IMG/VR virus record: IMGVR_UViG_3300021979_000001
Coordinates: 130,948 to 194,947 of that record
Source: a virus
Lineage: Duplodnaviria; Heunggongvirae; Uroviricota; Caudoviricetes
Length of the DNA: 64,000 nt
Strand: one strand, 5' to 3'
Part shown: positions 6,458 to 61,427 of the stretch, in pieces
Numbering within the stretch: position 1 is the first letter of the stretch
Layout of the letters: each line of letters opens with the position of its first letter
Program-made: the position numbers and the translations under genes
The notes under the pieces: model-generated
Databases searched by the model: none
What the model was told of the DNA's origin: nothing
Seen by the model: the letters and a program-made list of their open reading frames with translations, nothing else

Positions 6458-6691
6458 ATGGAGAAAGACATGACAACATTAAAAAATGTTGTTGATAAAA
6501 TCAACATTTCTGAAATACGACTCTTGGAAGAAACCGGCAATACGAAAAAGGTTCGGTTTGATTCCAAATTTGGCGCATTGCCGGTTAAAACAATGCACCA
6601 AATGTTCAATATCCCTAACGGGGATTTGTGTCTGTATTCAACCTCGTGGCAGACACGGGCTGATGGCACCCGGTTCAAATTGATGGTCTAA
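6458..6691 (+). CDS. Hypothetical protein
   Basis: 77 aa ORF; GGAG before the internal ATG (MTTL). Confidence 0.55.
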   Translation: MEKDMTTLKNVVDKINISEIRLLEETGNTKKVRFDSKFGALPVKTMHQMFNIPNGDLCLYSTSWQTRADGTRFKLMV

Positions 6692-7698
6692 CTATACCAT
6701 TTTCGTAGCGAACGACCGGTTTTGACAATATTGGTTGGGTATTGCACTGTTTTTGCAGTGCAATACAAACCATTTGGATTCTCGGTTGATACCTGTTCAC
6801 ACCAGCGTTTAACAAATTTTAAGAATCCTGGTAGTTCTAATCCATAAACACTTTCTATTGCACTAAACACATATGAGGATGGGTTTTCAGAATTATAAAA
6901 CTTCTGAATGCGTATGCGGCTCACCGGATTAGTGATGTTTGGGTCATTTTTCGTGACAAGATATGCAATCATTGCCCCTTCATCGACATCTGATTTGATA
7001 AAGTGTCTCTTTGAACCATCCACCAAAGATACACATGATTTCCAGGAACGCCCGGTTGACGCCCCTGCTATATCATAGGGATGCCGGGAAATGACAACCA
7101 TCAATGGTTGTTCCAGAATATTTATTCCCTGGCGAAAACGGTCATTTGTAAATAATAGCAAACCATTGTTAAATGACTGGCGCAAGTTATCGATCAATTC
7201 AACATATTGATCATATCTTGCCGGAATAATTTCTTCTGCATCAACGCCTTTTCTAACCCGATCCAACACCCGAACCGCTTTGGTGAACATCTTCCCGATG
7301 GAAAATTCTTTTCCATCCTTTGAAAGAAACATGCCCTTTTTATATTTTTGAATGACCGTTGAATCTTGAAAATCAGTGTTAATGGGTATGTTTATGGATG
7401 AAAACAGCTTATTCCAAAACTCAATATTTTTAACAGTTGGTGCCCAATAATGTTCTACAAATAAACTTAGGTCATTGATATATTTCAGTTCTAAAAAAAC
7501 ATCTTCCATTACACGAATATCATTGAACTGCGACATATCATTTGGTGTAAAATCAAAATATAGTCGATATGAATTATTCCCACGTTGAAATTTCTTAAAA
7601 CGTGCAAATATATCTTCATTTGTTGATCTATCCCAATTCTTCACATATGGTCGGGCCAGGGATATTGGATATGCTTCAAATAAGTCTGTTATTTTCAT
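6688..7698 (-). CDS. Putative virion-internal protein with leader MKITDLFE
   Basis: Leader shared with other late genes; ISRHPYDIAGASTGRSWKSC block. Confidence 0.7.
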   Translation of the reverse strand: MKITDLFEAYPISLARPYVKNWDRSTNEDIFARFKKFQRGNNSYRLYFDFTPNDMSQFNDIRVMEDVFLELKYINDLSLFVEHYWAPTVKNIEFWNKLFSSINIPINTDFQDSTVIQKYKKGMFLSKDGKEFSIGKMFTKAVRVLDRVRKGVDAEEIIPARYDQYVELIDNLRQSFNNGLLLFTNDRFRQGINILEQPLMVVISRHPYDIAGASTGRSWKSCVSLVDGSKRHFIKSDVDEGAMIAYLVTKNDPNITNPVSRIRIQKFYNSENPSSYVFSAIESVYGLELPGFLKFVKRWCEQVSTENPNGLYCTAKTVQYPTNIVKTGRSLRKWYS

Positions 7699-8894
7699 TT
7701 TTTATATTTGTCATATGGGTTATAAATTGAAAACTTCTTAACTACATTTGGGTCCATTTTAGCTATAAGATTAGGTGGCAATTCCGTCATACGGGTGCTA
7801 TTATAATTAAATTCTTTAATCGCGGGGTTATCAACTAGTTTAGTAAAAAATATCTGATCGCCATATATATCATTACCGTTTATCACAACGGTATTAATTG
7901 TTATTCGTGTATCGTTGCCGATGCCGCTTATTAACGCATCTGCTGTTTTTTTTCCCGGTATTCTGTCAGATAACGATACTACTAATTTGTTAATATTAAT
8001 TTTCGCACTAGGTTTGGCAAAGAAACGAACGTTTCTCATTTCAGAAATATTACATATATTAATGTCCCATACATTAACCCGCTTGAATTTTTCTGGTGAA
8101 TTATTATGGAAAAATACACTATCAAACGAACCTATTTTTAATGTTTTTGGCACATGTCCGACGGAATATGTATCTTTACCCAGGGTAATATCCGGGTTTT
8201 TTTGCATTGTGTTCATCAGATCAATTACAGTGAATGCGCTTGATGTTAAAAACACCGCTTGTGTTGCTTCCGCGCCGTGAATTAACCCATAACCGGGATC
8301 GTTAAAACCATCGTAACCGATTTTTCTTAATATCGCGTTCCATCGTTTGGTATTAACATATGTATATTCATCAAATTCGCTAATCCCACCCGCAGCAATT
8401 GCTTTAGTGAAGCCCCAAAGAAAACCAGCAGGAATGTTTACATAATTTTGGTTTGTTCTTGCTGCACTTCTAAAACGGGCAATCATTTCATCGGATAAAT
8501 TTAATACTGATTTCAGTTTGGCTATATCCGCTTCCAAATCACTTTCAGTATAATTTTTGATAAAATTAGGGTCTATATCGGATTTTAGAACATACAAATA
8601 TTTTCCACCATGATATGGTAGTAATGATAAACCACGATTTTCTTTTGGATTGCTAGACTTGTTGTATGGTTCAATATAAGTGTCCCATACATCTTGAATT
8701 CGAAACGCATATATTCCCAATGGGGAATCATGATTATCTGATGATTTTGGGTAAATGCCAACTTTTTTTACATCAGTTGTGTGAATATAAGCCGTTGGAT
8801 CATCTTTATATTGTTTTACAAAATCATACGCGCTTAGTTTAAAATTAACACTTGCGTTTCTTCGTTTTTCAAATAAATCGGCGATAAACATCAC
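7695..8894 (-). CDS. Putative virion-internal protein with ADP-ribosyltransferase-like domain (leader MFIADLFE)
   Basis: YIHTT...PLGIYAF...GYDGF...EATQAVFL pattern; ATAAATA upstream (8917-8923, - strand). Confidence 0.55.
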   Translation of the reverse strand: MMFIADLFEKRRNASVNFKLSAYDFVKQYKDDPTAYIHTTDVKKVGIYPKSSDNHDSPLGIYAFRIQDVWDTYIEPYNKSSNPKENRGLSLLPYHGGKYLYVLKSDIDPNFIKNYTESDLEADIAKLKSVLNLSDEMIARFRSAARTNQNYVNIPAGFLWGFTKAIAAGGISEFDEYTYVNTKRWNAILRKIGYDGFNDPGYGLIHGAEATQAVFLTSSAFTVIDLMNTMQKNPDITLGKDTYSVGHVPKTLKIGSFDSVFFHNNSPEKFKRVNVWDINICNISEMRNVRFFAKPSAKININKLVVSLSDRIPGKKTADALISGIGNDTRITINTVVINGNDIYGDQIFFTKLVDNPAIKEFNYNSTRMTELPPNLIAKMDPNVVKKFSIYNPYDKYKK

Positions 8895-8919
8895 AAAACC
8901 TATATCTAGTGTCGTTTAT

Positions 8920-9126
8920 TTATCCAAATGATAAGTTAAACAACACCTGATTCGATTCGTGTTTGAATTTGAACTCTATATTTGTATGTTCAGTTGGGGT
9001 GTATGCATAGAATACATCAGTCCCCAGAATAATATTATTGTTCGATAGCCAAGTTAACACCGTATCGAACTGTTCGGCATTATCAATATACACCGCGACG
9101 TAATGCCATTCCGCTAAATTTGACAT
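8920..9126 (-). CDS. Small hypothetical protein (C-terminal motif family)
   Basis: Ends IEFKFKHESNQVLFNLSFG. Confidence 0.6.
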   Translation of the reverse strand: MSNLAEWHYVAVYIDNAEQFDTVLTWLSNNNIILGTDVFYAYTPTEHTNIEFKFKHESNQVLFNLSFG

Positions 9127-9347
9127 TATTTACTTACCAAGAACACGAGTAAACAAATCACGGCAACCACACCAATTGCAATTAATACAATGTTGAAGAA
9201 TACCACGAACAACATGATAACCCAGAAAAATGCCCATACGTATGCCATGGGATCATGTAACAAATCCCAGGTCAGTGGAATATCGTAAATCGCGGTATAC
9301 AACACAACACCAACAAACCACCAGAACATTGTTTTTAATACAGGCAT
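9126..9347 (-). CDS. Small membrane protein
   Basis: 73 aa, two to three hydrophobic segments. Confidence 0.65.
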   Translation of the reverse strand: MPVLKTMFWWFVGVVLYTAIYDIPLTWDLLHDPMAYVWAFFWVIMLFVVFFNIVLIAIGVVAVICLLVFLVSK

Positions 9348-9437
9348 GTCATTTTTCCATTATGTTTATGATTAGGTTATCTATATGTTATCTGGTCCAT
9401 GACATGTTTGCAAGGGTAATTTTGTTCAACATTAATT

Positions 9438-10493
9438 TTATAGAATCGCCCGATTGCGACTACTCCAATCGCCCAGCATTTCTTTCATCTTTGTGCGATA
9501 ATCGGTAAGATATTTGGATAGCTGTGTTTCATTTTGGTTAGGATTATATACCAAATTTGTAGCATTGCTGGTGCCTTCAATATCAGCTACGATGTCGATA
9601 ATTTCCCCGGTTCGATTATTTTTGATCCATACCCGAGGTGTAGGTTTACCATTGATAATAACAGTCCCAGCTACCGGTGAAACATCCATTTCAGTTTCAA
9701 CCCGGATGATCACGGATGCAAACAATGGGGCCACGATACGCAGCGATGAACTAAGTTTTTGGTGGGAGAAAGGTTTGCCAATAGCCCAGTTTTTCCAATT
9801 GCCGATAACAAACGCTTCAATTTCTTCAATTAGCGTTACGGTTGATGCGTTTGAGGAAATACTTTCGTTGATGCCCATATTTGACATCGCTTCCTTCGCT
9901 TTGGCGACAAGACCATCAAACCCATCATATGCTTTCATGATCAACGCTTCATCATCGGTTTCCGCTGCTATAGTGGCATATTCCATGAATTCCGATAAAT
10001 CACCATTAATCACTTTGCGTAAAATATCGGGTTCTGCGGCAGCAAATTCATAAACAAGACCCGTCAATTCTGCAATTTGATGATCGTTGAGACTTTCTTC
10101 TGTATCGTCGGTTAATGGGATATATTGTTCAAACGAGGGATCACTGTTCAACCATTTTGCCAGGGCAGTAACACTTCCTGCGGTCCCGTCCATCACCTTA
10201 TGCTCAACAATGGTATAGAGATTAAGTTCGGTTGCGGTGACCGAATATACCAAAATCACCTTTCCATGCACCAAATGAAAGTGCCAAAACCCTTTTAATT
10301 TTCCGTTTTTAAATGGAGTATCTTTTGCGGACACCGGATCGGTTGACGTTTTCTTTTTTTCAATAAAATCATCAATTGATTTGGCAATACCTGGAAACCC
10401 ACGCATATATGCTGCGCGGTCTTTAACAAATCTGTCTGTCATGTAAACATTACGTTCTGTGACACTTTCTGAAATAATATCGATATATCGCAT
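9438..10493 (-). CDS. Multidomain protein with N-terminal YafQ/RelE-like mRNA interferase domain (leader MRYIDIISE)
   Basis: KDTPFKNGKLKGFWHFHL..VILVY..LYTIVEH resembles the YafQ core; late promoter at 10535-10541. Confidence 0.65.
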   Translation of the reverse strand: MRYIDIISESVTERNVYMTDRFVKDRAAYMRGFPGIAKSIDDFIEKKKTSTDPVSAKDTPFKNGKLKGFWHFHLVHGKVILVYSVTATELNLYTIVEHKVMDGTAGSVTALAKWLNSDPSFEQYIPLTDDTEESLNDHQIAELTGLVYEFAAAEPDILRKVINGDLSEFMEYATIAAETDDEALIMKAYDGFDGLVAKAKEAMSNMGINESISSNASTVTLIEEIEAFVIGNWKNWAIGKPFSHQKLSSSLRIVAPLFASVIIRVETEMDVSPVAGTVIINGKPTPRVWIKNNRTGEIIDIVADIEGTSNATNLVYNPNQNETQLSKYLTDYRTKMKEMLGDWSSRNRAIL

Positions 10494-10532
10494 TTGTCAA
10501 TTTTCGCCTAATTATTTAAATTACATATTTAC

Positions 10533-10565
10533 TTTATTTATCTGTATAAAATAAAACATGAATTG
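10533..10565 (-). promoter_or_regulatory. 33-bp late promoter cassette, copy 1
   Basis: tttatttatctgtataaaataaaacatgaattg; contains ATAAATA on - strand; one mismatch to 11908-11940. Confidence 0.8.
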
Positions 10566-10723
10566 GGTGTGCTATTCTCTATTAAGTATAGATAACGCAT
10601 AAAAATATCCATTAACATAACGTGCCATTATTTATAAAAAACGGGACACTGGTATGTCCCGTTTGATTAATGCGATCATCGATTATGTGATGATATTAAT
10701 TTTTATTATGCCATCATCATAAT

Positions 10724-11818
10724 TTACACATCAACAAGATTGTTCGGGTTGATGTCATTTATAAAACGACGGAAATTTGGTTTTTTCGAGGATGACCGCA
10801 TCTTGTCAATTCGTTTGGTATCCCAAAATACATATGCCGTTTGGTCCACCCCGGCAGTGGCAAAATTTCCATTGAATCTAAACCCGACATACCCAAGATG
10901 TTTAAGTTCCCGAATAAGGGTAGTCCAGAAATCAGATGATTTAACCAAAGTGAGACCAAGATGGGTATGGTTGATAAAATTATCAAACGATGGATATTGG
11001 CCGTTGCCTCCAAAATTGAAGTCTTGCCACGCAGCAGGTGCCGGATTGGTCTTTACTTTGTCAATCCAATCATCAAAGGTATGAAATAACTCCATGTTAT
11101 TAGCACTATATACCCCGGCAATCCGCAAATCGTGTTTTTTATCCTCACCGTAGAGATTGATTAAATATCCACGTAAAAAATGAATAAGTTTCATTGTCAT
11201 TGGTGCATCGGCATCATATGTGTTATCCGCATACGATGCAGGAATATCATATACCGACACCCTAGCATTGCCGGTGTATTTTACAATATTGTAATGACCT
11301 TGGGTAGTTTTCACAATGCGATAGTCATCGCCGGATTGTTTAATATCATCTATAAGTTGTTTATATGATGAAATTAATATTTGTTTGCTTTTTGTTCGCC
11401 ATATATTTTGATATTTCTGATTAAGTTTTTCTTCTGCGTTATGAAGTTCTTTGATGTTGTCATAACCTAACTTTTCTCGAATATCACCGATTTCAGACCA
11501 TAACTGTAATTGAATTTTATTCTTTTCTTCTTCTATAATATCAACACACTGCGAATATAACCAATCTCGGATTACTCCGGTTCTACTTTTTCCATTCCGT
11601 AATTCATATCCAGTAAACACTATATCATTGTCATGTTTTGCATAATCACGGGCAACTTTTGAATTAGTGGTGAGATATATCCCTGGACCAAATAACGCAG
11701 TTGACGATGTTTTATCATTATCATATGAATCATAAGTAACACCATCACCACGATATAATCTAATATTTTCCTGGTCTTCATACAAGTTTAGTGTTTCAAA
11801 TAAATCATGAATACGCAT
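10724..11818 (-). CDS. ADP-ribosyltransferase-like protein (leader MRIHDLFE); paralog of the C-terminal half of 11945..13759
   Basis: LYRGDG...ALFGPGIYLT...ARDY...GYVGFRFNG..YVFWD; start moved to ATG 11818 after AAGGA. Confidence 0.65.
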   Translation of the reverse strand: MRIHDLFETLNLYEDQENIRLYRGDGVTYDSYDNDKTSSTALFGPGIYLTTNSKVARDYAKHDNDIVFTGYELRNGKSRTGVIRDWLYSQCVDIIEEEKNKIQLQLWSEIGDIREKLGYDNIKELHNAEEKLNQKYQNIWRTKSKQILISSYKQLIDDIKQSGDDYRIVKTTQGHYNIVKYTGNARVSVYDIPASYADNTYDADAPMTMKLIHFLRGYLINLYGEDKKHDLRIAGVYSANNMELFHTFDDWIDKVKTNPAPAAWQDFNFGGNGQYPSFDNFINHTHLGLTLVKSSDFWTTLIRELKHLGYVGFRFNGNFATAGVDQTAYVFWDTKRIDKMRSSSKKPNFRRFINDINPNNLVDV

Positions 11819-11907
11819 TAATATGTCCTTTAGCGCCGTATAATTATGTCGAATAGTCATCAACAATGCATTGATTAATATGTAAAAAATAATAGCTATA
11901 ATGTTTT

Positions 11908-11940
11908 TTTATTTATCGGTATAAAATAAAACATGAATTG
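11908..11940 (-). promoter_or_regulatory. 33-bp late promoter cassette, copy 2
   Basis: tttatttatcggtataaaataaaacatgaattg. Confidence 0.8.
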
Positions 11941-11944
11941 AATT

Positions 11945-13759
11945 TTAATTATCAATTAATTCTTTTATTTCAGAATAATCAATATCGTTGATCGAAATAT
12001 GATTAAGACGCGGTTTTTTCAACATTGTTTTTGATTTTGAAATAAAATCTGCATCCCAAAAGACATATGATTTTTGTTTAATACCAGAAGTCCCATGATT
12101 TCCATTGAACCTAATACCAACATTTCCTTTATTAGTCATATAATGAATAAAACGTTCCCAAAACAATGCTGGATTATTCATCATCGTTATACCTGGCCCG
12201 GTATCATGTAAAAACTGATATAATGATGGGTATTCACCATTCCCACCAAATGCCTCATTTCCCAAATATGGTCGTGCTGGAATATCTTTTACCTTTTCTA
12301 TCCAATCATTAAATGAATAATTGTTATTCCCATCTTGTTCTAATGAAAGATTGAGTTTTCCAATCATACCGAAATCATTTACCAAAATATCACGAATTAT
12401 TGAAATAATACCCAAATTCATTGGAGCATCTGCATCTATCGTTTTGTTGACATATGATATTGGTAAAAGATATGTCGAAATATTACTATTAGATGTGTTT
12501 TGCACTATATCATAGTAACCTTGCGTTCTTTTAATAATTCTATAATCTTTTTTTCGATTTTTTAAATCATTAATAAATAATTTAATTTCTATATTTACAT
12601 TTTTCTTAAACGTTTTTTTAAGATCATCTTCTAGTTTGGTTATGTCTTTAATATATTGATCGTTTTCATCATCAGTTAACTCTTTATATTTGTTTTTATC
12701 AAAACCATATTTTACAAAAACCGTAGACATTTTATTATTATATTGAGTATTATATTCTGACTTAATTTTATTGATCTTATTAGTTAATTCTTTTCTAACC
12801 CATAAATTGATTATTTCTGATCGATCAGATGCAATATGTTTATTTCTGATTGTCCTACCAGAAAAAACAATATCATCAGTATTGCTAGTATAATCTTTCG
12901 CAACTTTTGGTGATGATGTTAAATATATGCCAGGACCAAACAACGCATTTTCATCAGTTTTACCAACATCATATACATCAAATTTATTTCCATCACCTCT
13001 ATATAATTTTATCATGTCACTAGGTGTTGAAACATTTTCTGAAATATTGTCACTCTGTGGCGACCACCCCCCGTTGTTAAAAATTGATTTAATTTGGTTG
13101 GCGTTGAACACAACAAGTGAAACCCCTGCTTCATCGTTCACCAATGTGCTATCAAATCCTTGGCGACGAAGATCATTGATGTTTTTTTTATCATCTGTTA
13201 CCGATGCAGTATATGATGGGAAATGATTATAAAATAACGTGCGTTGTCTTGTGACAACATCCTGTAATGTTGGCAACTTCGATTTTTTACGTAAAATTTC
13301 TCCCTGTTCTCCGTGCAAATCATCATACAGATAAATTATAATCATTTTATGTATGGGATTGGTTGTATTATCTAACAATTTCTGTTCGTCAACCCCAGTC
13401 ATTATGTCTGGCAACGAGTCAAACCATTCCTGATCCTGTTTTGATAAATCAAGGCCATTGATTCGGGTTGCATTAACATATACCGGAATAAGTCGCATGT
13501 TGCCCTGGGACTTTTTACCATTATCCCATACCCCGGCGATGCTCCCTGATACGGCTCCTTTTGGCGTAAACGAAAGATACACTCCGCCGCGTCCCCCAGC
13601 ATTAACATCAAAGCTGTCAAAATCAGCGGTAGTTGCATGATACATGCGGATAGGATGCCCTGAATTATCCACCACTTTGCTATTTGATAACCACGATGTC
13701 CGGTTTTGAACGGTTTCATCAATGGTTGTTGTGTGGTTTATTATGTCCTGGTAACGCAT
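11945..13759 (-). CDS. Polyvalent protein with two ADP-ribosyltransferase-like domains (ART-PolyVal-like)
   Basis: Domain 1: SKVVD..MYHAT..FDSFD..GVYLS..GFDS..VVFNANQIKS; domain 2: LYRGDG..GPGIYLT; late promoter 13787-13793. Confidence 0.7.
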   Translation of the reverse strand: MRYQDIINHTTTIDETVQNRTSWLSNSKVVDNSGHPIRMYHATTADFDSFDVNAGGRGGVYLSFTPKGAVSGSIAGVWDNGKKSQGNMRLIPVYVNATRINGLDLSKQDQEWFDSLPDIMTGVDEQKLLDNTTNPIHKMIIIYLYDDLHGEQGEILRKKSKLPTLQDVVTRQRTLFYNHFPSYTASVTDDKKNINDLRRQGFDSTLVNDEAGVSLVVFNANQIKSIFNNGGWSPQSDNISENVSTPSDMIKLYRGDGNKFDVYDVGKTDENALFGPGIYLTSSPKVAKDYTSNTDDIVFSGRTIRNKHIASDRSEIINLWVRKELTNKINKIKSEYNTQYNNKMSTVFVKYGFDKNKYKELTDDENDQYIKDITKLEDDLKKTFKKNVNIEIKLFINDLKNRKKDYRIIKRTQGYYDIVQNTSNSNISTYLLPISYVNKTIDADAPMNLGIISIIRDILVNDFGMIGKLNLSLEQDGNNNYSFNDWIEKVKDIPARPYLGNEAFGGNGEYPSLYQFLHDTGPGITMMNNPALFWERFIHYMTNKGNVGIRFNGNHGTSGIKQKSYVFWDADFISKSKTMLKKPRLNHISINDIDYSEIKELIDN

Positions 13760-13833
13760 TAACTTTGGTCCTATTATATTTGATGATATTTATCGCAACT
13801 CAACCAATATTGTTGATACGATTTATACAAAAT

Positions 13834-13866
13834 AAAAGAGGCAAGTCATTAGACTTGCCTCTTTTT
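13834..13866. terminator. Intrinsic terminator
   Basis: aaaagaggcaagtc-atta-gacttgcctctttt. Confidence 0.85.
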
Positions 13867-13898
13867 CGTCGATTCATGTTTATTAACATATCCCGAAA

Positions 13899-14075
13899 TT
13901 AATCTTCATTCAACAACCATTTATGGTCAAACGGTTGGTATCCATAAACCGGGCCACGAAGACGCACCCGCCGTTTTCCAGTGATGCTGTTTTCCTGATA
14001 AAGATAGAGTGGCGTTTTCTTGCATGTTTTCCACGAAAACGGAGTCTTTAACTTGGTTAAAATCACATTAAACAT
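13899..14075 (-). CDS. Small hypothetical protein (58 aa), absent from the ORF track
   Basis: AAGGA RBS then MFNVILTKLKTPFSWKTCKKTPLYLYQENSITGKRRVRLRGPVYGYQPFDHKWLLNED; fills the gap before the terminator. Confidence 0.6.
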   Translation of the reverse strand: MFNVILTKLKTPFSWKTCKKTPLYLYQENSITGKRRVRLRGPVYGYQPFDHKWLLNED

Positions 14076-14090
14076 GACTGTATTCCTTTG

Positions 14091-14391: not shown

Positions 14392-15621
14392 CTATTTCCA
14401 ATATGGTTTGAATTCTGGATATACCGTCAAAAACGATGTTCCATGAAACTTATCTTGCACATCAACATATTTTTGAAAGGCGGGCATAAGATCGCTCCAA
14501 TCCTCACCATTCATATAATTAATAACATTATCACCATTTTTTATCCAATAATCACGGCGTTTTCGCATACGATTACTAAACCATGGCGCATCGTCTAATG
14601 ACTTAAGATTCTCCCATTCCTGGGTAACTTGTTGTTTTAGTTCTTTCGGTAATACCTTAACACTAATTGCACGGGGATATTGAACCAAACTGGTATGAAA
14701 ATTACTACCAAGAGTGGCAAAATATTTAATAGTGTCAATCATACGAGTGATATTCATCATGCTTGATGTAAATGTCCCTGTCAACATAATATTTGGGAGA
14801 ACACTCGCCTTTTTAATATTTTCTTCAACTTTTTTCAAGTTTCCGCCAACTCGCAAGTAATCATATATTTTGGGATCGGCATCGACACTGATACGGATGC
14901 TGACTTCTTTAAAATGCTTCCATACATCAAGAATGCTTTTTCCCTTATATGATAAAGTAGAAAAATTACTGTTATAATTCAAAGTGATGTGGTGGGCATG
15001 GGGGATCATCCGTTCCAGAAAATCATAATGATCCGGGTGATATAATGGTTCACCACCGGTTGTCATAATTTCAGTTAAATTTGGAGCCAGGGCAACAATT
15101 TCATCCATGATTTCAGTTGTCAGCTTAAATGTTGTGTTTTCAGGTTTAAATCCTAATTTCGTTTGTTGATCCATTAATCCTTTGTCTTTTGATAGGTTGT
15201 ATTCCCACAGACTGCTATAATCTGGGGAACAATGTCTACACATAAGATTGCAAATATTATCAAATCTGATTTCGACTGAACCTATTTTGTTCAATGGATA
15301 CGAACCATCATCGTTTACATTGGCAAGAATATCCGCGTCTTTGACGTTGGGGTAAATATCGTTTCTTGCACGATGCCGCAGACTTTCCGCGCCACTTCGT
15401 TCAATATCCCGACAGCTTTTACATCCGCGAGGTGATTTCCCAGCAATCATATCCTGGCGGATAGATTTCATTGCATCGTTATTCCAAACATCTGTCAATT
15501 TTTCAGTTTTCAAATCGCCAACCTGATTTGGAAAGCGCCAGCACGGTGTGACCTTACCTTTATGCTTGATATTCAAATGATGAAACGGCATCACACAATA
15601 CACAGAACAGTTGTTTGACAC
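14392..15621 (-). CDS. Radical SAM protein with twitch/SPASM-like domain
   Basis: CVMPF..PCW..CKSC; CNLMCRHC; TGGEP. Confidence 0.9.
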   Translation of the reverse strand: MSNNCSVYCVMPFHHLNIKHKGKVTPCWRFPNQVGDLKTEKLTDVWNNDAMKSIRQDMIAGKSPRGCKSCRDIERSGAESLRHRARNDIYPNVKDADILANVNDDGSYPLNKIGSVEIRFDNICNLMCRHCSPDYSSLWEYNLSKDKGLMDQQTKLGFKPENTTFKLTTEIMDEIVALAPNLTEIMTTGGEPLYHPDHYDFLERMIPHAHHITLNYNSNFSTLSYKGKSILDVWKHFKEVSIRISVDADPKIYDYLRVGGNLKKVEENIKKASVLPNIMLTGTFTSSMMNITRMIDTIKYFATLGSNFHTSLVQYPRAISVKVLPKELKQQVTQEWENLKSLDDAPWFSNRMRKRRDYWIKNGDNVINYMNGEDWSDLMPAFQKYVDVQDKFHGTSFLTVYPEFKPYWK

Positions 15622-44841: not shown

Positions 44842-45015
44842 GATCTTATTTATGTTGTGATTGTCGATAGTGATTATATAGGAACGAAAAAAAGCCCGGA
44901 AAGGTTCCGGGCTTAATTTATATTATTTTATAATCCGAATGTCAGCGTTTTTTCGTCCCAACACATAGCATCACCTGGTTCAGCCGGGTGGATAATATGG
45001 CAGTGGGTGATACTA

Positions 45016-45294: not shown

Positions 45295-45297
45295 AGT

Positions 45298-45882
45298 TTA
45301 CAATTCACTACGACTGGAAACAACTTTGTCAATGATGCCATATTCCAACGCATCATGTGCGGACAAGAATTTATCTCGTTCCATGTCGTTCAATACCGTT
45401 TCATAATCTTTGCCGGTATTTTCAGCCATCATCGTTGTGAGGCGATGTTTCAGACGTTCCCCTTCTTTCAGGGAAATAAACTGATCAGTGATTTTGCCTT
45501 GGGTGCCGGATGACGGTTGATGAATCATTACGGTCGAGTCGAGAAGCGCGATACGATGCCCTTTGGTCCCGCAAGATAGGAACATCGCCCCCATGGACAT
45601 CGCCGAACCGGTAACCACCGTAACAATCGTGTTCTTGACAAATCGCATGGTATTGATCACGGCCAAACCATCATAAACCGATCCACCCGGCGAGTTAATA
45701 TACATATAAATTGGTTTTTCCGGGTCTTCGGCTTCAAGATGCAATAATGATGCCGTAATAACGGATGCCATCCGCGTTTCAACTACACCATCAACAAAAA
45801 TGATGTTTTCTTTCAGAAGCCGCGAATAGATGTCATATGACCGTTCGTTATGACCATCATTGGTAACTACTATTGGAATCAT
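45298..45882 (-). CDS. clpP: ATP-dependent Clp protease proteolytic subunit
   Basis: DIYSRLLKE, YINSPGGSV, AMSMG (catalytic Ser), MIHQP, ERD. Confidence 0.95.
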   Translation of the reverse strand: MIPIVVTNDGHNERSYDIYSRLLKENIIFVDGVVETRMASVITASLLHLEAEDPEKPIYMYINSPGGSVYDGLAVINTMRFVKNTIVTVVTGSAMSMGAMFLSCGTKGHRIALLDSTVMIHQPSSGTQGKITDQFISLKEGERLKHRLTTMMAENTGKDYETVLNDMERDKFLSAHDALEYGIIDKVVSSRSEL

Positions 45883-45895
45883 TACAATATTTTCC

Positions 45896-46159
45896 TTAAA
45901 CTGACAGTTTGACCATCACACTGTCTTCATACAATTCAAATCCAACCAATAACTCTCCACCACCCCCACCCCCGATTACATCCAAATATGTCCATCTACC
46001 AACACCAGACTGATACATGATTTCATTGATACGGGCACAACCATATGGGGATTTGGGATCAATTGATACAATGTGCCAACCAGTAGGTATCATTTGTCGA
46101 TTGAGTGTCAAATAATTTGGTGAAAGAGAATACACCAAATTTTTTAATTTCACATCCAT
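45896..46159 (-). CDS. Small hypothetical protein (C-terminal motif family)
   Basis: Ends LVGFELYEDSVMVKLSV. Confidence 0.55.
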   Translation of the reverse strand: MDVKLKNLVYSLSPNYLTLNRQMIPTGWHIVSIDPKSPYGCARINEIMYQSGVGRWTYLDVIGGGGGGELLVGFELYEDSVMVKLSV

Positions 46160-46219
46160 ATCATTTACCTAATCAGGGCAAAATCAGGGGAGAATTTATT
46201 TATATTCTCCCCTGATGGA

Positions 46220-47473: not shown

Positions 47474-47543
47474 AATTTAATCCTCGTATATTCAAAAAAT
47501 GAGCGACAATAATTATCTTAATTGTCGCTCATTCACATGTCAA

Positions 47544-49040
47544 TTATTTACTTGTGCCGCCCATCAAAGGACCATATTTCGCCGCAAAATTGGCGAAATA
47601 TTTTGATTTTGCAGAGAACGGAAGCTGGTATTGACCCACGGCCATTTTGATAGCCAAGATGCATACTTCGGTTTTGAAGTTTTCCATCGAAAATTTCACA
47701 TAGTTATCGGCATATTTATGCCATTTTTGGCCCTGCTCGGTATTATTGAAAACCGAGACGGACGCATTGTTGTGGAATGCTTCCTGCCGCAATTGATCAG
47801 CACGTTCTTTGAGCATTTGCGACATGGCCGTGATCAGTGCAAATGACATTTGCGGATCAAGCTGTTCGCTCGCCTTGGTAATTGTCCCATCCAAGATTCC
47901 AGCAGGACTTGGCATTGCATCCAGCCGTTTGTAAAATGAACAGAACTTTTGTCCGTCAATGTCTCCGATAGCCCCATTCACGCTGGCATGGAACACATCT
48001 GTTCCAACGCGAACCCCGCGTTTTTCGTTGTGTTCCTTTGCTTTCAGCAAGTCGGACACAAACATCCACGTCCGGGGGGCGGAAAAACCCCGAACCGATT
48101 TAACCATATCATCTTGGCTGGAACTCAACTGCCCCTGAAAATGTGTCAGATACCCGATGACCGCCGGATGATACATCGCGTCAATGGCATGGGTTTGCCA
48201 GTCTTCGAAATTCGCGACCATTTCGACATGCACCAAGCGGCTACGCACCGGTGAAGGCAAAACAAATGTGATACCACGGTCGCCTTCCCGATTGCCGCAT
48301 GCGACAATCTGAAAATCATCGGGCAACTCATACTCGCCCAAACGACGGTCAAGCAACAATTCATAACATGCCGCAATCACTGATTGCGGGGCCGAATTTA
48401 ATTCTTCAAGCCCGAGAATGCCACGGGCTTTGCCGGAAACATTGACGCGAAGGTTGCCAGGTTCAAGATATTCGAACAGCAAGTCCGACAAGTCGTCGAT
48501 TGACAACGATTTGTTTTGCGCAATGATCCCCATTGCCGTGGCGTGGTTATGTTCTGTCGTCAAGCATACATCGACGTAATCGACGCCTTTGCTAACCAAA
48601 ATCGGCACGGTCCCGGCAGTCAGTTTGCGCAAATTGACATCGGTCTTTTGCACATATGGAATGTGATTTGCGCCCAACGGGTTCAAAAATTCAACCCGGA
48701 CAATTTCCTTGTGGTTAATTTCGGCCACGTGGTTGAAGTTAAGGTCGCGTGGTAGCGTCACCGGCGACGACCACGACAATGCGTTAATTCCGCCCCGCTC
48801 GTAAGGCATCGGAATACCACGCAAATCAGATGGGTCCATCTGGGAAAGGCGCATATCGATAAATGCCATATTTTCTTCGGTCGCAAATTGTTTGCAAACA
48901 GCGGACTTCCCGATGCCGGGCGCGCCCCAGATAAACATACTGACCTTTCCCGAGCCAGTCAGTCCCGTCGAGTTCAACAACCGCAATGCAGGCACCATCG
49001 TTGATGGTGTCAATGTTAAAACTTGTGTTTCTTTTGCCAT
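47544..49040 (-). CDS. MoxR-like AAA+ ATPase with a roughly 100 aa insertion
   Basis: GAPGIGKS, DMRLSQMDPSDLRGIP, LEELNSA, VACGNR, SAPRTW. Confidence 0.9.
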   Translation of the reverse strand: MAKETQVLTLTPSTMVPALRLLNSTGLTGSGKVSMFIWGAPGIGKSAVCKQFATEENMAFIDMRLSQMDPSDLRGIPMPYERGGINALSWSSPVTLPRDLNFNHVAEINHKEIVRVEFLNPLGANHIPYVQKTDVNLRKLTAGTVPILVSKGVDYVDVCLTTEHNHATAMGIIAQNKSLSIDDLSDLLFEYLEPGNLRVNVSGKARGILGLEELNSAPQSVIAACYELLLDRRLGEYELPDDFQIVACGNREGDRGITFVLPSPVRSRLVHVEMVANFEDWQTHAIDAMYHPAVIGYLTHFQGQLSSSQDDMVKSVRGFSAPRTWMFVSDLLKAKEHNEKRGVRVGTDVFHASVNGAIGDIDGQKFCSFYKRLDAMPSPAGILDGTITKASEQLDPQMSFALITAMSQMLKERADQLRQEAFHNNASVSVFNNTEQGQKWHKYADNYVKFSMENFKTEVCILAIKMAVGQYQLPFSAKSKYFANFAAKYGPLMGGTSK

Positions 49041-49153
49041 CGTTTGTTAGCCTTTCTAAATTCGGATACAGTTATTTTGATAGTGGCAGATCAACGTAAT
49101 CAATGCCTTTGTCACGCAACATTTTCGAGAAAATGGCAGACACACCCAACCAC

Positions 49154-49253
49154 TTGTTTTCGGATGCATCCGATGTATTCGAAACATCTTGACGACAATT
49201 GTTTTCGGATGCATCCGATGTATTCGAAACATCTTGACGACAATTGTTTTCGG
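49154..49253. repeat. 45-bp non-coding tandem repeat (2.2 copies) with internal palindrome
   Basis: ttgttttcggatgcatccgatgtattcgaaacatcttgacgacaa x2 plus ttgttttcgg. Confidence 0.9.
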
Positions 49254-49516
49254 TAATATGAGCCATTTCAACCCTCCCAGTCGCGCATACTTGATAATTA
49301 ATAACCCAATGATGATCAATGGTAGATCATCTAGGACGTGGATATAGAGGAAATCCCCCAGGTGATCAATAATAAATCAAACGTTGCTGTTCCCCCTAAC
49401 GGTTGGCGTCATTTCATTTTGTCATATTGTCTTGATGACTTAATAATAACCATCTTTTAAAACCACCGTCAACCATAATTTTTAAAAAAATGTTAGCTTG
49501 TTTCGAGAGGATAGTT

Positions 49517-49909
49517 TCAACTATACATTTGTATAAGATTGGTCAAGCTACCATTGCACAGGGCCAATGTAATATACATATGCCGATCAAACAGTATCAC
49601 TTGTTTATATTGATAGGTAAAATAATAAGGAAATGTTGATATGCGATCAAATTCCGTTAGGTCTTTCAACCTAGGATATTCGTTTAAATCAACCGCATTA
49701 TGCGAGTATGTTTTGGATAAAATATTAAATGCAAGGGGCTTTAATCGTAACCCGGTTGCATTGTCAATATTAGTGCCACGGAAATTCTTGAAAACAAAAT
49801 GACCGAAAGTAATATCGGACATTTTATTGATTTCCGGGGCCATTGCAGCATCGTTGTCCGCATAATAAATGCGGACAACTTTAAAAATATCTTTATATAT
49901 GTTACTCAT
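49517..49909 (-). CDS. Hypothetical phage protein
   Basis: 130 aa; GLRL..F..L, PYY; coupled to the upstream gene. Confidence 0.65.
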   Translation of the reverse strand: MSNIYKDIFKVVRIYYADNDAAMAPEINKMSDITFGHFVFKNFRGTNIDNATGLRLKPLAFNILSKTYSHNAVDLNEYPRLKDLTEFDRISTFPYYFTYQYKQVILFDRHMYITLALCNGSLTNLIQMYS

Positions 49910-50202
49910 ACATCATTTTCTGTTACCATTACACCACCGGTTAACATGTAAACCATAAATTTATCAGTTTTAAACAACTTGTTTAATTTTTCAGCCAAAT
50001 TAAAGGCATGACCAGGATTGGAAAATGACACTTTTTTATATTTTGGTCCTGGATAATCAAGTAATGTATTCAATGATCGCAAATTGATCGGTTGCCCATC
50101 AAAAAATACAGCAAATATCGCTTCTGCTTTTAATACTTGTTCTGATTTAAATGTCTTTGGGTCAGTAAAATTCAACAAAACATCTGGTTTTGGACGACTC
50201 AT
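49906..50202 (-). CDS. Jumbo-phage-type hypothetical protein
   Basis: MSRPKP..PKYKKVSFSNPGHAFNLAEKLN; AAGGA RBS; late promoter 50249-50255. Confidence 0.75.
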   Translation of the reverse strand: MSRPKPDVLLNFTDPKTFKSEQVLKAEAIFAVFFDGQPINLRSLNTLLDYPGPKYKKVSFSNPGHAFNLAEKLNKLFKTDKFMVYMLTGGVMVTENDV

Positions 50203-50306
50203 TTTTTTAGTATCCTTATTTACGCTGTGGGTCCATTCCACACATCATTATTTATTCCAAACTACAAAAAACCGCGTTTGGTAATAAAGCGCTAAGGAAC
50301 TGTTAA

Positions 50307-50600
50307 CTATTGTGGATTAATCGTGCATTTTAAATCGTAGCCATTTTCTTGTGCGGCCCGGACAATGATGTCCCGTTTGGTCTCGGCCACATCATGCGTG
50401 AACGGACCAAACCCCGTGCAACCATTGTTGTGAACCGACCATGCATATAACGTTGCCGTATCTGGGTTAATTTTAAACACATCAATAATCAATAATATAA
50501 CAAAACTCAACGGTGTTGTGTCGTCATTGTGAATAATGACACACCACATCGACGGTTTTTTATTTTCAACCTTCTGGTTTTCCAAAATTCTTTCGTCCAC
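50307..50600 (-). CDS. clpS: ClpS N-degron adaptor
   Basis: WCVIIHNDDTTPLSFV..VH..G..DVAETK. Confidence 0.85.
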   Translation of the reverse strand: MDERILENQKVENKKPSMWCVIIHNDDTTPLSFVILLIIDVFKINPDTATLYAWSVHNNGCTGFGPFTHDVAETKRDIIVRAAQENGYDLKCTINPQ

Positions 50601-50818
50601 AACATATATCCTTGTGTGTTTTCAAACGAATATCATATCATATCAATACTACACAGCGCGTTCAACACATTATTGTATCAATCGCACCAACAGTTGCATA
50701 CCACCCACTGATCCAGTAGACAATTTAAGGGTGTATGCAGCATATTAAGATGATTATTAATTTTATATTTTTAAATAAATAAAGGCATAGCACCTAATTT
50801 ATCATGAGAAGGCGAACT

Positions 50819-52507
50819 ATGTTATTAGCTGATTTGTTTGAAGGAACGACTGACACCGGATCACGGTATTTTATCGAAGAACTTGATTTATCACCTGGAC
50901 GGATTATTGATTCCAAGATTGGTAATGCCCGTATATCATACACCGTATATGATGACTACATCAAACTGCATTCGATACGAGTAAGTCAACCAAACCGCAA
51001 AAAAGGAAATGCAATCAATGCGTTACGTGAACTTTGTGCGGCGGCTGATACGTATGGGTATGATATTTTTCTTGATGCCTCGCCACTTGATAAACGAACC
51101 CGTCTTGATAAATTAGTTGCATTATATCGAAAATTTGGTTTTGAACTCACCGGAAAAACAATCAATCCGGTTGGCGATCCCCAAATGGTCAGGAAAGCAC
51201 AACCGCCAAAGTTAAATGATAATAGTAATGTAATTTCAGAAAACACTAACTTACAGCAATCGGTAAATAATCCTGCACTGATGACACTAGCAGAATACAT
51301 GACGTTTATGAACCCATCAGATAAACATCATTCGGAAAATGCATATAATTATACGGTGAATTCACTAAATAATATTTCCAATTTTTTCAGTAATCAGGTA
51401 ATGCTACCGTCCGAATGGAAAAACTATTCAGTTTATTCTGATAATAACCAAAACTATTTTATTCGGTTCCAGGACAAGAATGTCGGTTGGGTAGAACATG
51501 GTGTATTGTATATTGATAAACAGTATTATTTAAGAGGATTTGAAGACGCATTCGCCCAGGATTTAGAAATAAAATATGTGAAATATCCCGAACACCATTT
51601 TACTGAAATGCTTGCCGCGAAAGCAAAACGTGAATACCCAATTTTGTTACAAAATTTGTTATCAAAGGGCGAGCAATTTCAGCTACGCAAAAACGAACAC
51701 GATGACCTGGCAATTTTGAATGATCTTGGTCTCATTGTCTCTATAGCACAGAATGAATATGGATGCATTCTAGTATCCACCACAAAAGAATATCGAGGAT
51801 ATGGTTTCGGACGATTACTTGGTATTAGGTTTCGTGAATTACACCCGGATTTTAATACCGGTGGTGTAACCCCAAATGGACAAAAGCAAGTCGTTCGTAT
51901 TTGGAAAAAATACATAAGTGATGCAATAAAAAATGGGCTTTATACCCGCATGCTACGGGCTGGTAATATAACCAAGTCGCGAATCAATGACATCCTGTCT
52001 GATTACGATGGGGCCAAATTTACCTCAAATATCAACAAAACCACCAATATTGCAGCTAAAATACCAGATGATTACAAAAATTGGTTGGTATTTAATTATA
52101 ATAATTCAATAATTGTTTATCATCGTTCTGTATATGATGCATCACCCGCAGACGACGATTTGGAAAAATACATTGTTGGGTATTTACATTTGGAACACAT
52201 GTCGTCGGGAATACCAACATTACACGATATTCAATATGTGAATCAACGGGCAGAAAAGATTTTAATTTACGGATCGTTATTCTTAACAAACAACAAACTT
52301 GCAATAGATCACGAAGCATCCGATTTTACCGATAGTATCAAAACTCTCGATGATGTGACAATTAATAATAACATGGCATCAACAACTCGCGATCTGAATA
52401 TTTTATCGAAACTGTTTGATTATGAAAAAATCATTCGTTTAAAAAATGATCCATATAGCGAATATATGTATGCAATACAATCTGCCGCAGAATCAAAATG
52501 GCTGTGA
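50819..52507 (+). CDS. Polyvalent protein with two GNAT-like domains (leader MLLADLFE); putative virion protein
   Basis: RVSQPNRKKGNA..LYRKFGF and TKEYRGYGFG..TPNG; ATAAATA 50775-50781. Confidence 0.7.
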   Translation: MLLADLFEGTTDTGSRYFIEELDLSPGRIIDSKIGNARISYTVYDDYIKLHSIRVSQPNRKKGNAINALRELCAAADTYGYDIFLDASPLDKRTRLDKLVALYRKFGFELTGKTINPVGDPQMVRKAQPPKLNDNSNVISENTNLQQSVNNPALMTLAEYMTFMNPSDKHHSENAYNYTVNSLNNISNFFSNQVMLPSEWKNYSVYSDNNQNYFIRFQDKNVGWVEHGVLYIDKQYYLRGFEDAFAQDLEIKYVKYPEHHFTEMLAAKAKREYPILLQNLLSKGEQFQLRKNEHDDLAILNDLGLIVSIAQNEYGCILVSTTKEYRGYGFGRLLGIRFRELHPDFNTGGVTPNGQKQVVRIWKKYISDAIKNGLYTRMLRAGNITKSRINDILSDYDGAKFTSNINKTTNIAAKIPDDYKNWLVFNYNNSIIVYHRSVYDASPADDDLEKYIVGYLHLEHMSSGIPTLHDIQYVNQRAEKILIYGSLFLTNNKLAIDHEASDFTDSIKTLDDVTINNNMASTTRDLNILSKLFDYEKIIRLKNDPYSEYMYAIQSAAESKWL

Positions 52508-59418: not shown

Positions 59419-59445
59419 TGTGTAGACATTTAAGGATAAAAAATA

Positions 59446-60714
59446 ATGAGTGGTGATAAAAACTTGCACTGTTCGTTTTGTGGTGAAGACGCCAATAACG
59501 TTCGCAAACTGATTGCTGGACCAGACGTTTACATTTGTGACCAATGCGTAACCCTTTGTCACAATATTATTTCTAACGAAGAAAAAATTAATGTAAGCAA
59601 CCTGTCAACCGAAGGATTTGAACCATCCGTTCCATCCCCCCGTAAGATTCGTGAATTTCTAGATCAATATGTTATCGGCCAGGATATGGCAAAAATAGCG
59701 GTATCAGTTGCGGTTTATAACCACTATAAACGATTGGAAAACCCAGTCGTCAATGATATTGAAATTGACAAATCAAATATAATGGTGCTTGGCCCTACTG
59801 GTAGTGGTAAGACTCTTATCGCACAATCGATTGCCAGAATGCTTGATGTGCCCTTTATTATTGCGGATGCCACTACATTAACAGAATCCGGCTACGTTGG
59901 TGACGATGTTGAAAGTATTGTCACGCGGCTCTTACAATCATGTAATTACGATGTTACAAAAGCCCAACGGGGTATTGTCTATATTGACGAAATCGACAAA
60001 AAAGGCAAAAAAGGTTCTGCTTCCAACAACCGGGATGTTTCAGGGGAAGGCGTTCAACAAGCCCTACTCAAACTGATCGAAGGAACCGAAGTTTTTATTC
60101 CGCCCCAGGGACCAAAAAAAGGTGGTGAAATGATTAAGTTCAACACCAAAGATATTTTGTTCATCGTAGCAGGTGCATTCGTTGGTATTGATAAAATCAT
60201 CGAAAAAAGCATTAATAAATCAAGTGGTATCGGCTTTGGTGCAGAAAAAGTTGGCAAAATTAAAATGTCACATGATGAATTGTTACAAAACCTGGAACCA
60301 GATCATTTCGTTCAATTTGGTATTATTCCTGAATTGGTGGGGCGGCTACCCGTTTTTGCCCCATTGACCGAACTTGATGCCGATACCATGATACGTATTA
60401 TGACTGAACCAAAAAATGCAGTAACAAAACAATTCAAAGCAATGTTCGCTCTTGAAAATATCGAACTGGTTTTCGAGGACGATGCTCTTACCGCAATATC
60501 CCAACAAGCACAAAAACGTAAAACCGGGGCACGTGGTATTCGTAGTGTTATTGAAAAGCATTTAATGAAATTACAGTATAATCTTCCCGATCTTAAAGAA
60601 GATGGTGTCACCAAAATCGTGATCAATAAAAAAACAATTGATGATGGCGAAGAACCAAAATTAGTTTTTACCAAACCCAAGAAAACTAAAAAATCAGAAA
60701 CCCCATCAAAATAA
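59446..60714 (+). CDS. clpX: ATP-dependent Clp protease ATPase subunit
   Basis: CSFCG zinc finger, GPTGSGKT, GYVG, DEIDK, RDVSGEGVQQALLK, IGF loop. Confidence 0.97.
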   Translation: MSGDKNLHCSFCGEDANNVRKLIAGPDVYICDQCVTLCHNIISNEEKINVSNLSTEGFEPSVPSPRKIREFLDQYVIGQDMAKIAVSVAVYNHYKRLENPVVNDIEIDKSNIMVLGPTGSGKTLIAQSIARMLDVPFIIADATTLTESGYVGDDVESIVTRLLQSCNYDVTKAQRGIVYIDEIDKKGKKGSASNNRDVSGEGVQQALLKLIEGTEVFIPPQGPKKGGEMIKFNTKDILFIVAGAFVGIDKIIEKSINKSSGIGFGAEKVGKIKMSHDELLQNLEPDHFVQFGIIPELVGRLPVFAPLTELDADTMIRIMTEPKNAVTKQFKAMFALENIELVFEDDALTAISQQAQKRKTGARGIRSVIEKHLMKLQYNLPDLKEDGVTKIVINKKTIDDGEEPKLVFTKPKKTKKSETPSK

Positions 60715-60866
60715 AACGTAATCCCCGCTATACAACCAGGCGGGGATTATTTTTTGACCATAAATCAGATAATACAATCAGAAGTTTTAATAATTACATT
60801 ATAACTCCAATTTTGATAAATACCTGACAACTGTTTTATTATCATACGTTTAGGGAGAATTATTTG

Positions 60867-61427
60867 ATGTCCGATATGCGTCAATTAATTGATTTAGTCG
60901 AAGCACAGCCTCGGGCGGGTGCCAGAACGACTGCGAAAACAAAATCGATGGAATACGGGGATTTTACCCGAGAAGTGTTTTTAACGCATTTGAAAAAAAT
61001 TGCTAAAGAATTATTGGCAGTGAATGATTTGGGTAAAAAATATTCAATGACTATTCACGACAAAAACGTTTTAATCAATGGGTTCAACCCACTGATGAAA
61101 AGTGTCAAAACATCCCTGGCACAAGTAGAAAAAATGGTTAAAAATGCATCAATTCTACCAGAAGATGCAAACCATACCAGAAATGTATTATGGAGCGCAG
61201 AACAATATCGTGTTCATTTAGTCAGTATTAGGGATGATTTGCGCTTACGCTGGTATGGCATCGATAACCCGGAAGTTAAAAAGATGGTCAAAGACCTTTA
61301 TGATACCATCGTAGTTGTCGTTAACGATCTAACTAAACTTATCGATTTAATCGAAAACAAAGATACCAATAACAATGCCAAAAATAATAAAGGCAAAGGT
61401 ATGTTTGGGTTTCTCAAAGGACTGTGA
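60867..61427 (+). CDS. Putative virion-internal protein (leader MSDMRQLIDLVE)
   Basis: ATAAATA 60816-60822; GGGAG RBS. Confidence 0.65.
   Translation: MSDMRQLIDLVEAQPRAGARTTAKTKSMEYGDFTREVFLTHLKKIAKELLAVNDLGKKYSMTIHDKNVLINGFNPLMKSVKTSLAQVEKMVKNASILPEDANHTRNVLWSAEQYRVHLVSIRDDLRLRWYGIDNPEVKKMVKDLYDTIVVVVNDLTKLIDLIENKDTNNNAKNNKGKGMFGFLKGL

Follow-up and report, generated by a model that had tools for sequence, protein, structure and literature searches.

A recurrent N-terminal leader on dispersed, predicted late genes of an uncultured jumbo phage: a probable capsid-targeting propeptide of the T4 type

The window analysed here, a 64,000-nucleotide (nt) stretch corresponding to bases 130,948-194,947 of one 457,165-bp IMG/VR virus record (G+C 38%), carries nine genes whose products open with a similar short N-terminal leader. 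Five of these are clustered at 6688-13759, and across the whole genome about 27 leader genes lie between 44 kb and 408 kb. The original prediction, which read these leaders as capsid-targeting tags on late-expressed effectors, had quoted nine starts, and all nine translate to the quoted leaders on the strands implied. Seven of them match independent gene calls (622 home-made calls, start choices included, from a simple self-trained caller), while those at 27917 and 28810 sit five codons inside longer calls (27932 and 28795), the second of which is preceded by a Shine-Dalgarno-like GAGGGA. Leaders of the main type span 8-15 residues and begin with Met, followed in most cases by a basic residue; after these come two or three variable positions, an acidic or amide residue, two hydrophobic residues and Glu or x-Glu. 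In a second sub-type (type B), 2-6 residues precede an Arg-Lys-Phe-Ile-Asn-Ile/Leu-Val-x-Glu core.

Judged from its genes, the source is an uncultured jumbo phage of the T4 superfamily, within the clade of Agrobacterium phage Atu_ph07 and Sinorhizobium phage Phosso. This placement follows from a Peptidase_S77 prohead protease of the T4 gp21 type (PF03420, 89.8 bits, genome 224563-225186), a gp23-type major capsid protein (PF07068, 248.6 bits, genome 222065-223264) and the identity of that capsid protein to those of Phosso (469 kb; 74%) and Atu_ph07 (490 kb; 64%), with PA5oct and Rak2-like phages next nearest. The head module follows a T4-like order of portal, small core protein, acidic protein, protease, scaffold and capsid protein. 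A megablast search of window positions 6000-14000 against 50,697 phage records returned no matches.

The similarity among the leaders far exceeds what chance would produce. A strict leader pattern (residue 2 being R, K, L, F or N, then [DEN][LI][FIVC][ESNQ] from residue 5 or 6) was found at 21 of the 622 N-termini, compared with 0.75 expected from within-protein shuffles of residues 2-16 (maximum 4 in 1000 shuffles) and 0.66 expected from internal Met positions; chance and N-terminal composition are therefore ruled out. Similarly, a looser four-residue motif (acidic/amide, Leu/Ile, hydrophobic, Glu/Ser/Asn/Gln) peaks at residue 5, with about 19 occurrences versus 1.6 expected per position. A position-specific scoring matrix (PSSM) trained on the 21 strict-pattern N-termini gave 25 N-termini scoring at least 8, versus about 2 for internal windows, although only 4 of these 25 were not already in the training set, so that the pattern count is the fair statistic. 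Removal of evident false positives and addition of lower-scoring members of the second sub-type gave the curated set of ~27 leader genes. A DNA ligase (genome 387297-388661) and open reading frames (ORFs) at 430317 and 443244 have matrix scores with no second supporting feature and were excluded as members, as was a pair at genome 219620-221059 that includes a member with a sigma-70-like early promoter. The leader-bearing ORFs had been called unrelated, which describes most of them, as the leader-stripped proteins show no mutual similarity outside one group of ADP-ribosyltransferase (ART) paralogues. The description fails for the genes at 10724-11818 and 11945-13759, which are paralogous (39% identity over 349 residues), and several leader proteins have an ART domain in common.

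Leader genes are strongly associated with the heptamer ATAAATA. Its genome-wide frequency is no higher than composition predicts; its position peaks sharply, with 73 of the 118 copies within 150 nt upstream of genes falling 30-49 nt before the start codon. The heptamer stands 31-41 nt upstream of six of seven morphogenesis genes identified by T4 homology (portal, protease, sheath, terminase, gp25 and a neck protein) and upstream of none of 12 replication/recombination genes. Because it is placed at morphogenesis but not at replication genes, ATAAATA is predicted to be the core of a T4-type late promoter, without preference for T at the first position. No T4 gp55 late sigma factor was found by BLAST of T4 proteins against the phage proteome, and the label 'late' therefore rests on promoter distribution. 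ATAAATA directly precedes 15 of the 32 leader genes with a PSSM score of at least 6, compared with 68 of 577 others. When tight operons are included, it serves 21 of 27 curated leader genes (18 of 25 uncurated) versus 118 of 595 others, an odds ratio of 10-14 (p = 5e-10 curated, 9e-8 uncurated). The original prediction had set beforehand, as a way in which it might be refuted, a motif no commoner in ATAAATA-driven genes than elsewhere, and the motif proved commoner by a wide margin (21/27 against ~20%). It had also placed a core upstream of each gene or of the first gene of its operon, and eight cores were located in the window (Table 1), the gene that starts at 7698 belonging to the operon of that at 8891, since the two overlap by 4 nt.

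Table 1. Leader genes and ATAAATA promoter cores in the window (positions counted from the first letter of the window).
Feature	Position	Strand	Description
Leader gene 1	6688-7698	-	336 aa; leader Met-Lys-Ile-Thr-Asp-Leu-Phe-Glu; large uncharacterised phage family
Leader gene 2	7695-8891	-	398 aa; first of two-gene operon with gene 1
ATAAATA	8917-8923	-	32 nt upstream of 8891 start
Leader gene 3	9438-10493	-	351 aa; possible RelE/ParE/YafQ-like fold right after leader, residues ~6-120
ATAAATA	10535-10541	-	48 nt upstream of 10493 start
Leader gene 4	10724-11818	-	364 aa; paralogue of gene 5, weak ART-like N-terminal region
ATAAATA	11910-11916	-	98 nt upstream of 11818 start, atypically far
Leader gene 5	11945-13759	-	604 aa; first [LI]-x-E ends at residue 15; predicted ART-PolyVal and second ART-like module
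ATAAATA	13787-13793	-	34 nt upstream of 13759 start
Leader gene 6	27198-27917	-	239 aa; alternative start 27932; H-E-x-x-H motif, possible zincin
ATAAATA (here TATAAATA)	27947-27953	-	36 nt upstream of 27917 start
ATAAATA	28731-28737	+	64 nt upstream of 28795, 79 nt from 28810; farther than typical
Leader gene 7	28795-29232	+	145 aa; type-B leader, Arg-Lys-Phe-Ile-Asn-Leu-Val-Glu core
ATAAATA	50775-50781	+	44 nt upstream of 50819 start
Leader gene 8	50819-52507	+	562 aa; leader, GNAT-like module, C-terminal domain common with Atu_ph07 virion protein
ATAAATA	60816-60822	+	51 nt upstream of 60867 start
Leader gene 9	60867-61427	+	186 aa; type-B leader, [LI]-x-E ends at residue 12

A cleavable head-targeting leader would also require a gp21-type protease, and here too the expectation was borne out: the S77 protease is present, and the same [LI]-x-E site logic recurs in the leaders, at the capsid protein junction and in the scaffold. 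An [LI]-x-E tripeptide occurs within the first 25 residues of 26 of the 32 leaders with a PSSM score of at least 6, where it generally forms the final three positions of the leader, compared with 109 of 577 others (19%). Leu-Met-Glu is present in all three capsid proteins compared (this phage, Phosso and Atu_ph07), directly ahead of the conserved N-terminal block of the mature protein; the corresponding junction in T4 gp23, from which 65 residues are removed (PMC9958956), holds the Leu-Thr-Glu cleavage site. The product of the scaffold-position gene contains 17 [LI]-x-E sites in 411 residues, a density second among 335 proteins, which fits a scaffold degraded by the protease, as is T4 gp22. 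The top density in the genome is found in a 200-residue protein with nine sites (genome 42585-43187 (+)), which has a weak type-B-like leader and whose gene is the immediate downstream neighbour of one with an ATAAATA promoter. This product may be a further scaffold or core protein degraded by the head protease.

Virion residence of leader proteins was assessed in the relative Atu_ph07, for which a virion table obtained by electrospray ionisation tandem mass spectrometry has been published (140 rows; PMC6102473, Supplementary Table S5). Table rows were assigned to ORFs on the basis of gene order and of molecular weights agreeing to 0.01 kDa, and the whole Atu_ph07 and Phosso genomes were used. 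With the PSSM trained on the present phage alone, 12 Atu_ph07 ORFs reach a score of 8 or more, and 8 of them encode virion proteins, versus 124 of 784 others (p = 1.3e-4). Atu_ph07 has mostly a Trp-containing variant of the leader (Met-Arg/Lys-Trp-x-Gln-Leu-Thr/Asn-Glu), and under a post hoc pattern covering both variants 24 of 25 leader ORFs are in the virion versus 109 of 771 others (14%; p = 5e-17); automatic assignment gave 23 of 25, the last being added after one molecular-weight tie was resolved (gp475 versus gp482). Absence from virions had been named as a further refutation, and in this relative both the unbiased and the post hoc count place leader proteins in the particle.

Among the leader-bearing virion proteins of Atu_ph07 are the array gp53-gp63, gp33 (65% coverage), the small protein gp199, whose gene follows the portal gene, gp206, encoded immediately downstream of the protease, the weakly ART-like gp381 and gp394. 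The array (41844-50592 and neighbours) is a tandem series, mostly of ~30 kDa paralogues with Trp-variant leaders, all of them in the virion proteome; Pfam found no domain in the sampled members gp54, gp56 and gp63, with a sub-threshold GNAT hint in gp63. The Atu_ph07 authors reported 131 virion proteins, 102 of them unexplained, and mention no N-terminal motif, cleavage or paralogues (PMC6102473), nor are these mentioned in the PA5oct paper. A literature search, conducted largely without subscription journals, turned up no account of the leader in the Atu_ph07/Rak2 group.

The leader also extends beyond this pair of phages. N-termini with a PSSM score of at least 8 number 8 in Phosso (1.8 expected) and 12 in Atu_ph07 (3.6 expected). 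In 77 IMG/VR loci with relatives of gene 1, the leader was found at 14 of 2062 first-ATG N-termini, compared with 2 of 6357 internal Met positions, with four in one 21-kb stretch of a 499-kb contig and two in a 543-kb contig. At the peptide level, the motif is kept in homologues of <50% identity from many other phages.

The cargo behind the leaders is varied. The original prediction had named YafQ-like RNase, ART-like, zincin and GNAT domains, of which the ART assignment exceeds the curated Pfam threshold, while the other three all fall below theirs. Gene 5 matches ART-PolyVal (PF18760) with an E value of 1.4e-17 (65.2 bits versus a cut-off of 31.2), and outside the window the domain is matched at genome 221138-221677 (58.5 bits), 116247-117065 (78.2) and 334027-334368 (55.1). 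These four leader genes with significant matches are solidly predicted to encode ARTs. A near-miss lies at genome 124558-125316 (29.8 bits, just under 31.2), and there are two weak paralogues, including gene 4, whose matches to ART-PolyVal (E 0.017) and DUF3990 (E 0.006) are both sub-threshold. Other cargo above curated thresholds comprises a Nudix protein (genome 93426-94028) and an Amidoligase_2 protein (genome 60287-61588), the latter homologous to the virion protein gp196 of Atu_ph07. PHROG searches assigned leader proteins to unknown-function families only.

The remaining assignments are leads only. In gene 3, the YafQ_toxin match is sub-threshold (E 0.094; 13 bits versus a cut-off of 30), the Atlas structural model of residues 1-125 aligns with RelE/ParE/YoeB/YafQ clusters at template-modelling (TM) scores of 0.57-0.74, and no sequence homologue was found among 5.8 billion proteins; a RelE/YafQ fold is thus a lead from modelling. 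Gene 6 may encode a zincin, with H-E-x-x-H at residues 116-120 of the longer call, a Peptidase_M90 match (E 0.017) and weak structural likeness to M78/M48/SprT (TM 0.3-0.44). Gene 8 may encode a GNAT acetyltransferase, since GNAT-like motifs are visible by eye and residues 17-109 match Acetyltransf_7 (E 6e-4; 20.5 bits, below the gathering cut-off of 27). Its residues 153-561 match phrog_29287 (E 7.5e-45) and are homologous to gp377, a member of the Atu_ph07 virion proteome. The leader is modular, in that cargo homologues without it exist: gp377 is leaderless, and P0003, the sole homologue found for gene 6, keeps the metal motif and has no leader. For gene 2, no Pfam or PHROG match was obtained, and its single-sequence AlphaFold2 (AF2) model was unusable (predicted local distance difference test, pLDDT, 40).

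Gene 1 is the most widely represented, with 2026 family members at E <=0.001, and is homologous to the leader-bearing Atu_ph07 virion protein gp394 (18 peptides). Glu8 of the leader is invariant in a 20-sequence alignment, and the residue at P3 of this Glu is Leu/Ile in 95% of the 80 representatives, out of 150, that keep the N-terminal region. An AF2 model from the 20-sequence alignment (pLDDT 81.5) gives residues 1-9 values below 50 and begins its fold at about residue 12, suggesting that the leader lies outside the fold. Foldseek found no match to this model in the PDB at E <=0.001, and the fold is therefore uncatalogued; in BFVD it retrieved uncharacterised jumbo-phage proteins and weak PcfJ-like rows only. 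The family (P0004-P0153) shares a conserved Ser-Arg-His-Pro-Tyr-Asp ... Trp-x-Ser-Cys core without a Pfam model, and its C-terminal extensions reach from 300 to 1800 residues, some with DUF4116 repeats.

We consider it likely that the common leader acts as a T4-type capsid-targeting propeptide. ATAAATA promoters would drive the ~27 dispersed genes late in infection, and the leader would dock each client onto the scaffolding core during prohead assembly. The S77 gp21-type protease would then cut after the Glu of [Leu/Ile]-x-Glu, removing the leader and leaving the mature enzymes inside the head alongside the DNA, which they would probably accompany into the host. Docking on the scaffold, cleavage, placement in the head interior, injection and any host effect are steps that we infer by analogy with T4, whose capsid-targeting sequence (CTS) loads foreign proteins into the head and is sufficient alone, according to Mullaney and Black (1996) as cited in PMC9958956 and PMC3012670. 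The tag probably loads its cargo into the head as T4's does.

Several observations weigh against a propeptide of this kind. Six of the 27 leader genes have no recognisable ATAAATA operon, and six of the 32 leaders have no [LI]-x-E in the first 25 residues. The curated clients are not basic (median isoelectric point 5.7), unlike T4 internal proteins, and the T4 IPII/IPIII CTS scores 1.2 on the phage's matrix (rank 31 of 260 T4 ORFs), so that homology of the leader to the T4 sequence is not supported. In the first 150 kb of PA5oct, from the wider Rak2-like group, the leader is all but restricted to the small virion protein whose gene follows that of the portal. The present phage is itself uncultured and the virion evidence comes from its relative Atu_ph07, where the 24/25 pattern was composed after viewing the N-termini and the unbiased 8/12 is weaker. 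In addition, that proteome is a whole-virion list from phage purified with polyethylene glycol, which does not distinguish positions within the virion and may include contaminants.

The leader could instead be an assembly tag for an external structure, such as a baseplate or the hair-like head/tail fibres of the Atu_ph07 type, in which case the proteins would not be injected. The ten-gene leader array gp54-gp63 of Atu_ph07, which encodes similar ~30 kDa proteins without an enzymatic signature, would suit such a role, and the Atu_ph07 proteome gives no position within the virion that would count against it. However, many clients are ART-PolyVal, Nudix and amidoligase proteins, kinds predicted to be head-packaged and injected (PMC9503650). 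Moreover, the leader ends in the site type of the head protease, the N-terminus of T4 Alt is similar, and the small protein at the prohead-core position beside the portal gene bears the leader in both Atu_ph07 and PA5oct. An external destination is therefore unlikely.

A cytoplasmic stability or regulatory tag, for example an N-terminal signal for phage ClpXP or ClpS, with virion presence incidental, would find its partners encoded in the window (ClpX at 59446-60714 (+), ClpP at 45298-45882 (-) and ClpS at 50307-50600 (-), the last head-to-head with leader gene 8), and the Met-basic-hydrophobic start of the leader is one that we take to recall, loosely, N-terminal ClpX signals. Such a tag leaves unexplained the presence of 24 of 25 Atu_ph07 leader ORFs in virions, the conserved [LI]-x-E with its invariant Glu and the link to late promoters, and we regard it as very improbable. 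Least credible is a nucleotide-level or compositional origin, through selection either for 5' coding ends that are A+T-rich and unstructured or for a downstream element that enhances translation, since the leader codons are indeed A+T-rich (Leu TTA 7/10, 2.9 expected; Ile ATT 6/6, 3.3 expected) but composition-keeping shuffles of residues 2-16 give 0.75 versus 21, Asp, Phe and Glu codons track genome usage, residues 2-4 vary freely, the peptide motif survives in <50%-identity homologues and the link to virion residence holds at the protein level. Each of these alternatives covers some of the data, and none accounts for late promoters, protease-site motif, enzymatic cargo and virion residence combined.

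The capsid-targeting propeptide proposed here has its closest known counterparts in T4, where the principle is textbook biology, with diverse internal proteins having the CTS alone in common (PMC3012670). The IPII/IPIII targeting sequence occurs twice, in exact copies, in the T4 genome. In the accounts cited above, the T4 CTS resembles the present leader in being an extreme N-terminal leader of ~10 residues with a hydrophobic-x-Glu end, removed by gp21 and carried by diverse non-essential late proteins. T4 has 2-3 clients with a conserved CTS, compared with ~27 dispersed over 360 kb here, and its clients are small, basic DNA-binding proteins, whereas those described here are acidic-to-neutral enzymes whose packaging and cleavage would follow by analogy.

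T4 Alt, a head-packaged injected ART from which gp21 removes a small N-terminal peptide, offers a second comparison. On the phage's matrix Alt scores 9.4, ranking second of 260 T4 ORFs behind UvsY (an evident false positive), its N-terminal octapeptide is closely similar to the gene 1 leader, and alt lies behind a late TATAAATA promoter. Alt and the present clients thus have in common a head-carried ART (predicted here), a late promoter and a leader-like N-terminus, but differ in domain type (Alt/VIP2 versus ART-PolyVal, PF18760) and in number, with one packaged ART in T4 versus four significant and three weaker ones behind the leader. The leader system is therefore best described as functionally like the T4 CTS and the Alt propeptide, by analogy, with no homology to the T4 internal-protein leader demonstrated.

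Other phages provide partial parallels. The hyperplastic internal-protein locus of T-even phages also contains diverse late ORFs with the CTS alone in common, read as anti-defence (PMC3012670), but it is one locus of small proteins, in contrast to the many loci and large multi-domain enzymes described here. Polyvalent proteins and MuF- or portal-fused effectors include the same ART-PolyVal, Nudix, GNAT and amidoligase domains, for which packaging and injection together with the DNA have been predicted (Iyer et al. 2017, PMC5512222; 2022, PMC9503650); there, however, the effectors are fused to a structural domain or form a giant polypeptide, whereas here they are separate genes with a short, presumably cleavable tag. 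A protease related to T4 gp21 (gp245 in SPN3US) cuts many head and ejection proteins after Glu in the phiKZ-like giant phages (PMC5694885, PMC10052503). These phages differ in belonging to another lineage. Their propeptides are reportedly long rather than a common short N-terminal tag, with a small-residue-x-Glu site motif.

What is new, relative to these systems, is a distinct leader family with ~27 mostly enzymatic, non-basic clients and a first, indirect, cross-check against a published virion proteome. Virions of jumbo phages contain 100 or more protein species, mostly without a known role or route into the particle, and a leader from which virion residence could be predicted by sequence alone would account for roughly a fifth of the Atu_ph07 virion proteome (24 of ~132 proteins). 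It would also let the probable injected enzyme sets of uncultured huge phages be read from metagenomes and would provide a candidate tag for putting foreign proteins in large phage heads, and it ties the predicted head-packaged ART and Nudix enzymes (PMC9503650) to a loading mechanism without structural-protein fusion. A bolder possibility, which we hold only tentatively and would place somewhat short of likely, is that the leader is a sequence-readable address label for the whole injected proteome of a 450-540-kb phage clade (~27 clients here, ~25 in Atu_ph07), with ARTs, a Nudix hydrolase, an amidoligase and a RelE-fold nuclease among the clients. If this is true, several times more protein species than in T4's known load would travel by the leader route, and the tag would have been moved repeatedly to new cargo genes. 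The leader could then also serve for loading foreign proteins into jumbo-phage heads.

Further features of the window lie outside this system. The five-gene leader cluster is bordered by radical-SAM/SPASM-type genes at 3020-5463 (-) and 14392-15591 (-); Pfam confirms 3020-4303 and 14392-15591, the latter with a SPASM-like Cys motif at its N-terminus, while 4315-5463 is a third such ORF by likeness. A full-length gene of the TnpB/IS605 OrfB type, with HTH_OrfB_IS605, OrfB_IS605 and Cas12f1-like TNB domains, lies inside the phage genome at window 32330-33580 (+). At 46220-49040 (-), a DUF2201 putative metallopeptidase/VWA-like protein adjoins a 498-residue protein without a Pfam match, and together they may correspond to the MoxR-vWA-type pair of chaperones reported from group 2.2 jumbo phages (PMC7824862). 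Close by, at 49072-49266 (-), the product of a small ORF, which may not be a real gene, opens with a near-exact internal peptide repeat of ~14 residues.

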